From a virus, in the IMG/VR virus record IMGVR_UViG_3300042904_000405, positions 8,404 through 72,403 of that record: DNA of 64,000 nucleotides. One strand, 5' to 3'. Under the pieces are notes generated by a model. The model made no database searches. It had not been told where the DNA came from and was given only the letters and a program-made list of their open reading frames with translations. A program made the translations under genes and the position numbers. Of the stretch, positions 12,446 through 13,943 are shown piece by piece (position 1 is the stretch's first letter; each line of letters opens with the position of its first letter).

Positions 12446-12938
12446 CGAAGGCCTCGTGCTCGGCTGGCTGGAGGAGCCGGTCAGGATGATCGAACGTCAC
12501 CACGCCAGACCAGACAGTGACCCGCACGCCCCCGACGGTCCGCCAGTGTGGCACCATCAGGTATGGCGCCCACTGCGTCGGGTAGGGAGAGATGGCCCCG
12601 TCAGGATCGGTGGGCCACGCCAGGAAGACGGCGTCGTCCTCGCCGGGTAGGGCAGAGTTTGCCCTGAAGGCAGGGTGAGCCTCGAGCCGGGCGAGCGCCC
12701 TGCTGATGCGGATGACCGCTCGATGCAGCGAGCCCGAGGCCCGGCCCTTCCGCTGTCCGTAGGCGTTGAAGGCCTGCGCGCTCAGGTCATCCAGCAGCAG
12801 ACGCCAACCGATCGGCGGCATCGGCACGTCGATCATCACCCGGCCAACAGGCTCTCCCCTGTCCAGCCACGCCTTCGCCGCCGAGGTGGCGTGCGCATAG
12901 CATGCCTTGAGCTGGGAGTCAGTGAGGCGAACGATCAT
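12435..12938 (-). CDS. Hypothetical protein
   Basis: ATG overlaps the stop of the upstream EPP micro-gene; converges on terL. Confidence 0.6.
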   Translation of the reverse strand: MIVRLTDSQLKACYAHATSAAKAWLDRGEPVGRVMIDVPMPPIGWRLLLDDLSAQAFNAYGQRKGRASGSLHRAVIRISRALARLEAHPAFRANSALPGEDDAVFLAWPTDPDGAISPYPTQWAPYLMVPHWRTVGGVRVTVWSGVVTFDHPDRLLQPAEHEAFVTA

Positions 12939-13090
12939 GGGGAATCGGACGGCGGTTCGGTAGCGCAGCTCGGGTTGGGACACTGGCGCTGTTCGCCGTA
13001 CGGCCAGTCCATCGTCTGATCGACCACGACCCAGCCGACACCTCCACACTCGGGGCAGTTGAACGGCGGTTCGGTAGGGCTACTCGTCAT
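12935..13090 (-). CDS. EPP micro-gene (Cys-rich; motif at both ends)
   Basis: MTSSPTEPPFNCPECGG...CPNPSCATEPPSDSP*. Confidence 0.6.
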   Translation of the reverse strand: MTSSPTEPPFNCPECGGVGWVVVDQTMDWPYGEQRQCPNPSCATEPPSDSP

Positions 13091-13287
13091 CGCTGGCACC
13101 TGCCTGTTTCGTTGCATCGGCGCTCGCCGCAACGTTCGTCGAGGAAGTCCGCCAGGGGGCAGCCGTGTTCGTGGCGGTCGCCGGGTCGCACATCGGCGGT
13201 GCATGTGGCGCATCGGTAGTGGCCGGTGAGTTTCCGCCACCAGCCCCACGCGCTATCGGACGGCGGTTCGATGCCCGGCTCAGGCAT
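13087..13287 (-). CDS. EPP micro-gene
   Basis: MPEPGIEPPSDSAWGWW...CATC..HEHGCP. Confidence 0.6.
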   Translation of the reverse strand: MPEPGIEPPSDSAWGWWRKLTGHYRCATCTADVRPGDRHEHGCPLADFLDERCGERRCNETGRCQR

Positions 13288-13570
13288 CGCTCACCATCCA
13301 TTGCAGGTTCCAGACACGGTCTGTCGATGGGTCGTGATGGTCGCGAGAGCCGTCGTGGAAGTGGCGAGCGGGTAGATCGCAGGTGTAGTGCACCGCACCT
13401 GACGTGATCCGCGCCGGGCAGACCGGCCACGTATTGCACGGACATCCCGGAGCGGGATCGAGCAGCGGGCCACCGCCGCATTCCGGGCAGGTGGACTCGG
13501 ACTGGACGTGATGCGCCGCCATGTCCGGACATTGCCCGACCGGCACCCCGTGCGAGCAATCGATAGTCAT
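13280..13570 (-). CDS. Cys/His-rich small protein
   Basis: MTIDCSHG...CPECGG...CDLPARH....HH; translationally coupled. Confidence 0.55.
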   Translation of the reverse strand: MTIDCSHGVPVGQCPDMAAHHVQSESTCPECGGGPLLDPAPGCPCNTWPVCPARITSGAVHYTCDLPARHFHDGSRDHHDPSTDRVWNLQWMVSDA

Positions 13571-13809
13571 TCCCCGCCCTCTTCCTCGTCGGTCCCCGAT
13601 CCGTTGCAGGCGGCGCAGACGCTGACAGTGAGACCCATGCGATCCCAGCAGCGGCCGAGCCCGAGGCAGTCCTGACACGGCACGGTGGCGGAGTTGAACG
13701 GCGGTTCGGTAGCCCGTTCCCGCATCGCCTTGCGCTTGCACTCACACCCGCCCTGGAACAGGCAGTCAGGGTGGCGCTCGCACCTATTGAACGGCGGTTC
13801 GGTAGCCAT
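13567..13809 (-). CDS. EPP micro-gene made of two fused modules
   Basis: MATEPPFNRCERH...RERATEPPFNSATVPCQDCLGLG..CAACNGSG. Confidence 0.6.
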   Translation of the reverse strand: MATEPPFNRCERHPDCLFQGGCECKRKAMRERATEPPFNSATVPCQDCLGLGRCWDRMGLTVSVCAACNGSGTDEEEGGE

Positions 13810-13943
13810 CACAGGAGCGCCAGTCCGACCATTGTCCACCACAGTGCGAGCATGATGAAGCCCGCCAGGCAGACGGCTACGAGTAATCCGAGCGCGGCTT
13901 CGTCGTCGCTATCGGACGGCGGTTCGGCAGAGGGGTCAGGCAT
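13809..13943 (-). CDS. EPP micro-gene, membrane peptide
   Basis: MPDPSAEPPSDSDDEAALGLLVAVCLAGFIMLALWWTMVGLALL*. Confidence 0.55.
   Translation of the reverse strand: MPDPSAEPPSDSDDEAALGLLVAVCLAGFIMLALWWTMVGLALL

Follow-up and report, generated by a model that had tools for sequence, protein, structure and literature searches.

A repeat in fixed codon phase within an array of small genes

The stretch of DNA analysed here, a 64-kb window comprising bases 8404–72403 of the 72,403-base IMG/VR virus record IMGVR_UViG_3300042904_000405 (67% G+C; completeness estimate, 95%), contains an array of small leftward genes (array 1) in which a short repeat is read, copy after copy, as the tripeptide Glu-Pro-Pro (E-P-P). 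Array 1 forms the distal end of a long leftward operon and adjoins the terminase gene; its genes, its six repeat copies and related features elsewhere in the window, including a second array, are listed in Table 1. The small genes tile with overlapping stop and start codons, and we found neither promoter-like sites in 12300–15300 nor terminator-like sites inside 12935–13943. Given the stop–start overlaps and the lack of a promoter in that interval, the array looks like one operon. The idea of leaderless promoters was rejected, since the starts have Shine–Dalgarno (SD)-like purine runs and no TANNNT at −12 to −7.

Table 1. Positions (window coordinates) of the repeat copies, array genes, gene-start modules and SOS-box-like features
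Feature	Position	Strand	Description
Copy 1, GAACCGCCGTCCGAT	12944–12958	−	EPPSD at the C-terminal end of g5 (ATEPPSDSP*)
Copy 2, GAACCGCCGTTCAAC	13058–13072	−	18 nucleotides (nt) past the g5 ATG (MTSSPTEPPFN)
Copy 3, GAACCGCCGTCCGAT	13255–13269	−	18 nt past the g4 ATG (MPEPGIEPPSDS)
Copy 4, GAACCGCCGTTCAAC	13693–13707	−	Internal to g2 (RERATEPPFNS); in-frame ATG exactly 18 nt upstream
Copy 5, GAACCGCCGTTCAAT	13786–13800	−	9 nt past the g2 ATG (MATEPPFN)
Copy 6, GAACCGCCGTCCGAT	13911–13925	−	18 nt past the g1 ATG (MPDPSAEPPSDS)
g1	13809–13943	−	44 amino acids (aa); EPP leader, then one hydrophobic (membrane-type) helix; weak Pfam match below the cut-off
g2	13567–13809	−	80 aa, Cys-rich; two CXXCXGXG, two EPP copies; sub-threshold DnaJ_CXXCXGXG match
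g3	13280–13570	−	96 aa, Cys-rich; the sole array gene without the motif
g4	13087–13287	−	66 aa, Cys-rich; EPP leader
g5	12935–13090	−	51 aa; CPECGGVG zinc-ribbon-like motif; EPP copy at both ends
g6	12435–12938	−	167 aa, conserved, function unassigned; downstream of the array; anchor gene kept in the deletion variant
g4 gene-start module, 50 nt	13251–13300	−	SD-like GGATGG, ATGCCTGA.CC, six bases, box, AGC
g1 gene-start module, 50 nt	13907–13956	−	80% identical to the g4 module (repeat search)
LexA-domain-only protein, 82 aa	14227–14475	−	PF01726, E 3.4e-12
Non-coding array, about ten SOS-box-like sites	29968–30131		Divergent control region between two early arms
Perfect box CGAAC-GCTC-GTTCG	37005–37018		Ends 6 nt upstream of the ATG of a 214-aa gene, 36354–36998 (−)
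Second array	38145–39165	−	Five small genes, six in-frame cores

The repeat GAACCGCCGTYCRAY has nine exact matches in the window, all on the minus strand, compared with a mean of 0.00 in 100 dinucleotide-preserving shuffles, none of which reached nine. Six of them constitute array 1 (starts at 12944, 13058, 13255, 13693, 13786 and 13911), with the spacings of 114, 197, 438, 93 and 125 bp that a reading from sequence alone (hereafter the sequence-only reading) had reported; the remaining three start at 38566, 38943 and 39139. The 9-mer core GAACCGCCG is found at 13 places across the record, once on the plus strand (at 23489) and 12 times on the minus strand, six times per cluster; those of the second array have their G1 positions at 39153, 39069, 38957, 38734, 38580 and 38312. 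All 12 minus-strand cores lie on the coding strand of leftward genes, and are thus co-oriented with transcription, and all 12 are translated as E-P-P in the gene models. Their offsets from the start codon are +18 (five copies), +9 (two copies), +12, +75, +96, +102 and +132; nine of the 12 have a start codon in frame no more than 18 nt away, eight of these being 9–18 nt past an annotated start. The copies share one orientation and one codon phase and are identical over 17–21 bp. The peptides quoted in the sequence-only reading (MATEPPFN, MPDPSAEPPSD, MPEPGIEPPSD, ATEPPSDSP*, RERATEPPFNS) are all present, as is the quasi-palindrome with its fixed GGCG centre, and the copy that it placed at the join of two fused modules (at 13707) is indeed read RERATEPPFNS, to which we add the in-frame start codon upstream of it (Table 1).

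The codons of the repeat are as constant as its frame. All 12 copies use GAA, a codon that accounts for 87 of 564 Glu codons (15%) in 27 confident genes of the record, and the codons GAT (13%), AAT (4%) and GCT (12%), likewise rare in those genes, recur in the repeat flanks. The only two other EPP tripeptides in the 27 genes both use GAG, and the probability of GAA CCG CCG given EPP is 0.05 per copy. Codon usage therefore does not account for the constancy of the copies: the constant use of a rare codon indicates that the DNA is conserved, not the peptide alone, as the sequence-only reading had proposed from the invariant codons, and selection on the repeat acts at the nucleotide level.

The small genes differ from larger genes in base composition. 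G+C content at third codon positions (GC3) is 0.73–0.82 in the array-1 genes and 0.81–0.93 in 27 large reference genes, and the coding frame is still clear; across the micro-genes of both arrays, GC3 (0.71–0.82 over all gene models) is lower than that of the reference genes. Several micro-genes carry CXXCXGXG or CXXC pairs, which are zinc-ribbon-like, and matches to DnaJ_CXXCXGXG and Anti-TRAP stay below threshold.

The repeat core resembles the actinobacterial SOS box

The phage has a WhiB-like gene, so its host is probably an actinobacterium. In Mycobacterium tuberculosis, the LexA site consensus is TCGAAC-N4-GTTCGA (PMC3381160; this and all other papers are cited from extracts of their text), and some of the sites in that species are internal to coding sequences (PMC3381160); the corresponding consensus in Streptomyces venezuelae is tCGAAC-N4-GNNCGa (PMC9380542). 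The core of the repeat reads CGAAC-CGCC-GT(T/C)C(G/A)A, in codons xxC GAA CCG CCG T(T/C)C (G/A)Ax, and by its sequence looks like an actinobacterial LexA/SOS box, which makes it a candidate operator. All six array-1 copies have one or two mismatches to the 12 specified positions of the M. tuberculosis form, TCGAAC-N4-GTTCGA; compared with the S. venezuelae form, CGAAC-N4-GNNCGA, three copies have no mismatch and three have one. Copy 3 with its flanks, TCGAACCGCCGTCCGA, differs from the M. tuberculosis box at one position. Across the window and the analogue contigs described below, 16 of 25 copies are within two mismatches of the M. tuberculosis box; this tally leaves out one of 26 cores (position 893 of contig L290), which is read REPPSPG and has neither the T(T/C)C continuation nor the leader context.

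Similar boxes occur in the same phage outside the repeat. The pattern CGAACNNNNGTTCG, with up to one mismatch, has 20 matches compared with 3.56 ± 2.03 expected and a maximum of 10 in 100 shuffles. Eight such sites make up most of the non-coding array at 29968–30131, in which the GTTCG half is invariant and the spacers vary; another of the 20 is the perfect box at 37005–37018. The total for the phage is about 22 SOS-like sites in three clusters. The likeness of the motif to the SOS box, the non-coding array of such boxes and the LexA-domain gene described below are additions to the sequence-only reading.

Two boxes outside the non-coding array lie close to gene starts. The perfect box at 37005–37018 has the same position relative to its start codon as copy 1 has to that of g6, where the copy 1 box ends 8 nt upstream of the ATG (spanning 8–21 nt upstream). 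An SOS-like box, GGAACGAGTGTTCG, is situated at 9316–9329, 11 nt past the ATG of the WhiB-like open reading frame (ORF) at 9305–9790 (+); it shares the phase of the EPP copies (GAA ... TTC, read E-R-V-F) and differs in the spacer. The start of this ORF is uncertain, as an overlapping minus-strand ORF (9121–9357) also has high GC3.

A LexA-domain gene lies upstream of the array

The only PF01726 match in the whole record is a gene 300 bp upstream of array 1. Its 82-aa product consists of the LexA winged-helix DNA-binding domain alone, without a cleavage or dimerization domain, and aligns with the LexA chains 8s7g, 3k2z and 1lea. We consider this protein a candidate binder of the boxes on the strength of its domain assignment; it is the only candidate binder found, and no search was aimed at an L5-type repressor. 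Its relatives in the protein database number three, all on contigs of at most 4.7 kb. No PF01726 match was found in the records behind the analogue contigs L290 (completeness estimate, 100%) and L286 (42%), which would make host LexA the common candidate, if a protein binds.

The motif heads unrelated genes in other soil phage contigs

Contig collections were scanned for two cores placed 84–145 nt apart, which returned at least 119 loci in one scan and 31 and 19 in two others; 150 loci from the first two and 14 new ones from the third were screened by script. Among the loci listed, four are true analogues: L198 (the same as L215), L151, L286 and L290, all high-GC soil phage contigs. All other double-motif loci screened were tandem-repeat protein genes or chance pairs and were dropped. 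L215 and L198 are collinear and 99.5% identical over 1317 nt without a gap. With the window, L198/L215, L151, L286 and L290 share at the DNA level only the motif, over 12–21 nt, and the one gene in common between any of them and the window is an Rpf-like gene in L198 (see below); tblastx among the analogue contigs gave compositional noise only.

In these contigs the core is again read in the E-P-P frame and is mostly associated with gene starts. The leaders are MSTTEPPFD, MPPGADEPPFIS, MPERPIEPPSDSP, MPSDRIEPPFES, MPDPAVEPPFHS, MTDRGTEPPFNS and MGNEPPFIA, and MPSDRIEPPFES, from L151, carries a perfect TCGAACCGCCGTTCGA. The genes behind them are diverse, with a Cys-rich ORF of 46 aa at one extreme, a DPPY methylase-like ORF at the other and a 292-aa enzyme-like ORF among them; one 255-aa ORF in L198 holds five copies. 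Taking window and analogues together, 18 of 25 copies are preceded by an ATG or GTG that is in frame and at most 18 nt away, in 11 cases an ATG at exactly −18, and the other seven have no nearby start codon. The sequence-only reading had suggested that motif-to-motif segments are mobile cassettes. Of this idea, the portability stands, in that the core heads unrelated genes in four contigs and, as described below, one unit has been lost as a block; nothing specifically integron-like was found.

Further searches defined how far the likeness extends. A scan with a 16-mer of the motif returned at least 118 loci, and all 80 among the matches listed had a single match, as by chance. No contig matched a 20-mer with GCTACC or the ATGCC-N13-type A leader, and DNA searches with a 66-nt module gave chance-level matches only (E 0.5 or worse). 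Viral contigs searched with the LexA-like protein, the terminase large subunit (TerL) and a g6-family alignment yielded no relative, nor did metagenome contigs searched with the g6-family alignment; in genome contigs the same alignment gave only a 27-residue match in one unrelated contig (L127), which was dismissed. In the protein database, g6 has 16 homologues (37–75% identity), all on contigs of at most 4.7 kb, and g5 has none among proteins of 28–90 aa.

In L198, L151 and the records behind L286 and L290 (G001 and G002), the motif copies lie on the reverse strand, no further than about 1.4 kb from the left end of the contig. The analogue arrays could thus sit at the distal end of a leftward operon near a genome end, like array 1 beside the terminase gene. 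The reverse strand of L286 (reverse-complement position 10545, locus position 1592) also has a leader variant, ATGCCTGAGCCTGCTATCGGACCGCCGTCCGATTCC (MPEPAIGPPSDSP), heading a 175-aa DPPY methylase-like ORF, in which a single base change (GAA to GGA) gives the perfect palindrome CGGAC-CGCC-GTCCG.

A natural deletion joins two copies of the repeat

We compared positions 11800–15000 with the Logan contigs of four sequencing runs (X3–X6); among the runs listed in the underlying search, which was for DNA, none was recorded as RNA. A 619-nt contig from X5, a groundwater metagenome of a different study, matches 12503–12961 with six differences and then 13929–14088 with seven. It is about 98% identical to the window in both flanks, joins 12961 to 13929 and so skips 967 bp, and the run has no coverage of 12977–13832. 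The junction falls inside the 17+2-nt identity between copy 1 and copy 6, which form the two ends of the deletion. The product is an in-frame mini-ORF of 13 codons, MPDPS(T)EPPSDSP*, that still overlaps the start of g6. Logan contigs are built by a 31-mer assembler, and an identity of 17+2 nt is too short for such an assembler to collapse. Thus a close relative lacks all five micro-genes, and its deletion ends exactly in the repeat. This is a single event, and it bears out the expectation of the sequence-only reading that relatives would show breakpoints exactly at the motif.

The other runs add little to this picture. X4 and X6 hold pieces of the array identical to the window and no variant. 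In X3, a diverged relative has a g6 fragment of about 84% identity and, beside it, 28 nt that match copy 5 with its start codon exactly, in different surroundings; this joint is weak, as its shorter side is 28 nt. All the joints in X3 (12837 to 13788, 14285 to 14376 and 14419 to 14614) have short sides (28–44) and about 85% likeness, and are treated as weak. Uncovered bins in X3, X4 and X6 were left out of the evidence, and with the weak X3 joint set aside, the one clean indel seen (1/1) has its ends in repeats.

A deletion between direct repeats of 17–20 bp needs only general recombination or slippage, and the X5 event is equally expected from general recombination between the copies. The sequence-only reading had considered a system resembling an integron. 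A profile search of the whole record for tyrosine recombinases (PF00589) gave no match, whereas 14 of 14 control genomes matched, and serine recombinases (PF00239) were likewise absent from the record and present in the named control genomes. Nor did the record contain an attC-type repeat: the repeated unit is 15–50 nt and direct, with only four weak inverted pairs, none of which flanks a segment. Nor are the motif-to-motif segments single ORFs.

A proposed portable gene-start module with a LexA-type operator

The explanation that we favour, and in which we place about as much belief as doubt, is a portable gene-start module with a LexA-type operator that acts in the manner of a stoperator and whose in-phase copies also serve as crossover points. 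The repeat would be the core of a module of about 35–50 bp, made up of an SD-like GGATGG, the ATG, two to five codons, the box and usually a Ser codon. Small early genes with no relation to one another would begin with this module, both in the phage studied here and in four or more further soil phage contigs of high GC. We infer that a LexA-family protein binds the boxes; this could be host LexA, possibly together with the 82-aa phage protein. As the array has neither promoters nor intergenic gaps, each occupied box would form a roadblock for transcription along the operon, and the micro-genes would thereby be tied to the SOS state of the cell. Recombination between co-oriented copies in the same phase, of which the X5 deletion is the one case seen, would delete, fuse or swap genes in frame and would thereby produce the cassette-like look and the chimeric micro-proteins.

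Several observations weigh against this explanation. Five of the six array-1 copies lie inside ORFs, 9–102 nt past the start and not at promoters, so that the sites are not placed in or next to the promoter of a regulated gene as classical SOS boxes are. The spacer CGCC, which encodes Pro-Pro, is invariant in 25 of 25 copies (an unbiased count only for the 12 copies of the window, as the analogue contigs were found with a pattern that fixes the spacer), whereas the spacers of the non-coding boxes vary and LexA boxes have N4. The residue three codons past the prolines is Ser in 18 of 25 copies, encoded by AGC in 11 and by TCC in seven; that two unrelated codon families are used indicates that the peptide is under selection, contrary to what one would expect of an operator alone. 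DNA binding, moreover, does not require that 12 of 12 copies share one frame. Enrichment of SOS-like sites is small in the analogue records (5 vs 1 and 2 vs 0), and mycobacteriophage Cosmo, which has a gene with a LexA-like domain, shows no excess of such sites (5 vs 5 in the control), so that a LexA-like gene alone does not imply a box system.

A more far-reaching version of the same idea is put forward tentatively, as a possible but minority view. In it, the repeat is a dual-purpose coding joint, at once a portable start and linker module, LexA operator DNA and a fixed phase for the in-frame assembly, truncation or swapping of micro-proteins. If so, any ORF captured behind the module would be both translated and placed under SOS control, and the operator would be an exon-like shuffling joint. 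That unrelated phages of different actinobacterial hosts have it in common would then follow from an SOS box that does not change across the phylum.

The Ser codon and the prolines could also mean that selection acts on the N-terminal peptide x-E-P-P-(F/S)-x-S itself, as a docking motif or a Pro-Pro stall dependent on elongation factor P, and that the likeness to the SOS box is secondary. Such a peptide would fit the Ser at +6 reached through both codon families, the Pro-Pro that stays invariant despite its position in the spacer of the box, the frame of all 12 window copies and the very different proteins that it heads, from micro-proteins to the DPPY methylase-like and 292-aa enzyme-like ORFs. 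We nevertheless think it unlikely, as it leaves unexplained both the constant rare codons (GAA, GAT and AAT) and the SOS-box match, in a phage that has a non-coding array of such boxes and a LexA-domain gene; in scans of Pfam and PHROGs, no known peptide motif was matched.

Quite unlikely, too, is a homology linker of the promoter early stem-loop (PeSL) or Susskind–Botstein type, in which in-phase copies serve gene exchange, deletion and fusion by general recombination and no protein binds. This has published precedents (PMC2839356, PMC4351075) and would agree with the copy-to-copy deletion and its in-frame product, with the 28-nt match to copy 5 in differing surroundings in the X3 relative (the weak joint), with the unrelated gene bodies behind the leader and with the five copies in one L198 ORF, as expected of fused modules. 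Evolvability, however, is a weak force for holding 15–20 nt invariant across unrelated phages, the clean recombination event is single, and L215 and L198, the only two analogues that are nearly identical, are collinear; the match to the SOS box would again go unexplained.

The in-ORF boxes, like the non-coding ones, might instead act mainly as decoys, with no local effect on the micro-genes, soaking up host LexA during phage replication and so turning on host SOS or relieving repression elsewhere. The number of sites in three clusters suits this proposal, as does the fact that no integrase or resolvase was found, so that repression of a prophage is not obviously needed. We regard it as improbable, since decoys need neither gene starts nor one codon phase nor one orientation, non-coding arrays such as 29968–30131 are cheaper to build, and the analogue records have only two to five sites.

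A further proposal places the element in the mRNA, where it would either fold into a hairpin over the ribosome-binding site or be bound by a protein that represses translation, according to the logic of RegA. The element is specific to one strand and associated with starts, and in the g4 leader GGAUGG pairs with the motif CCGUCC: the start region at 13244–13309 (−) is predicted to form a nested hairpin with the AUG in the inner stem (−30.7 kcal/mol, z −3.12; one shuffle in 200 was equally stable). The same outer pairing is predicted for the c2d leader (38555–38620), though not significantly. That g4 region is the only one of nine start regions to beat its shuffles (the other z-scores are −0.94 to +1.33), type B leaders (…GTTCAA) have no GGAUGG partner, no Rfam family matches and seven of 25 copies have no nearby start codon, all of which makes an RNA-level operator very improbable.

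Finally, dedicated site-specific recombination, in which a recombinase, perhaps host-encoded, recognizes the quasi-palindrome and moves motif-to-motif cassettes, would fit the quasi-palindromic core with its fixed asymmetric 4-bp centre, the copy-to-copy deletion and the same site on unrelated elements, but it is highly improbable, as the record, of which an estimated 95% is present, lacks both recombinase families where controls matched, long inverted repeats like those of attC were not found, g2 contains copies in its interior and g5 has one at either end, so that the copies do not bound single ORFs, and the site already has an explanation in the SOS box.

Relation to known systems

The favoured gene-start module shares features with several published systems. 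SOS boxes of Actinobacteria have the same half-sites and 4-nt spacing as the repeat. They differ from it in that the repeat forms arrays inside ORFs of phages, in a fixed codon phase and with an invariant spacer and conserved flanking codons, and in that LexA is here a candidate binder only. In the tectivirus GIL01 of Bacillus thuringiensis, host LexA acts together with gp7 at tandem boxes, and gp6 is a truncated LexA homologue (PMC4551915, PMC6182141). The GIL01 boxes described there are in promoters, whereas the repeat is in coding sequence, and the host phylum and type of phage differ.

Among repeats at gene boundaries, the stoperators of Cluster A mycobacteriophages occupy short intergenic gaps. 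They are asymmetric 13-mers to which an immunity repressor binds as a two-domain monomer, and they are proposed to stop elongation (PMC9283540). Like them, the repeat provides many short sites within transcription units, near gene boundaries and co-oriented with transcription; unlike them, as far as the extracts describe them, it lies inside ORFs and is a near-palindrome of the LexA type. The sequence-only reading had offered stoperator-type repressor sites as its alternative, and this comes closer to our favoured explanation than its main proposal did: orientation and association with gene boundaries agree, whereas the type of sequence and an intergenic position do not. The start-associated sequences (SAS) and extended SAS (ESAS) of Cluster K mycobacteriophages include a 13-bp GGGATAGGAGCCC directly upstream of the start, which is untranslated and has no assigned function (PMC3203893). 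They too are short, co-oriented repeats found where translation of genes of different families begins, but their sequence differs, and the repeat studied here is 9–18 nt downstream of the start and translated.

The 17-bp repeats of Cluster O mycobacteriophages, TGTTCGGNNNCCGAACA, number more than 30; many coincide with the 5′ end of a gene or lie just within it, and recombination between copies explains indels between related phages (PMC4351075). Their pentamer half-sites (GTTCG/CGAAC) are the same as those of the EPP repeat; the halves are in the opposite arrangement (GTTCG...CGAAC) with a 3-nt spacer, and the extracts neither describe a frame lock or leader peptide nor treat the repeats as LexA sites. 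PeSLs of T4-type phages are non-coding elements of about 100 bp, each with a promoter and a terminator; small ORFan genes lie between them and are deleted or inserted when the elements recombine (PMC2839356). As with PeSLs, the indel between relatives (1/1) ends inside the repeats; in contrast to PeSLs as described there, the repeat is 15–50 nt long, coding and without a promoter-like or terminator-like site.

In integrons, small genes stand in an array with a copy of attC between one and the next. This site is prone to recombination by the integrase IntI; it is long and forms an imperfect inverted repeat, which folds when single-stranded. Array 1 is likewise a set of small genes with a repeated recombination-prone site, but no integrase and no attC structure were found, and the sites are inside genes and in frame.

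In none of these nearest published parallels does a regulator-type site come with both a fixed coding phase and a leader peptide common to the genes. Actinobacteriophages are already known to have short repeats at gene boundaries (stoperators, SAS, Cluster O), and phage promoters to have LexA boxes; our literature search found no regulator-type site in fixed codon phase that supplies the first dozen codons of numerous genes unrelated to each other and turns up again in phages of separate descent. Should binding be confirmed, the repeat would be a clear example of overlapping codes, in which the same bases specify operator and peptide, and a simple way to place phage ORFan genes under host SOS control. 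The 967-bp deletion would then show such sites driving the in-frame turnover of micro-genes.

Genome context

The phage has no close relative in GenBank: the 2.1-kb region has no match among GenBank phages, and identity to isolated phages does not exceed 33% for TerL and 39% for the 82-aa LexA-like protein. Pfam scans of the neighbouring genes were mostly empty, and an Rfam scan of the window gave no match. The TerL gene is at 10922–12445 (+), and genes for the portal, the major head protein and an HNH endonuclease follow from 39657 onwards. TerL is thus about 29 kb from the portal and head genes (41802–43388), with the leftward early operon between them; in Cluster O phages the displacement of the terminase is smaller, at about 14 kbp (PMC4351075).

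Searches of the record for the RecT, ERF and YqaJ families found none. Together with the missing integrase and resolvase matches, this suggests that the phage is lytic or is kept without integration, which bears on its roughly 22 LexA-type sites.

Downstream of the second array, at 37218–37556 (−), lies a gene for a small secreted protein of the resuscitation-promoting-factor type (Rpf-like; ECESGGNW). It is the sole gene common to the window and L198, where its counterpart at 6040–6363 has 49% identity over 111 aa.

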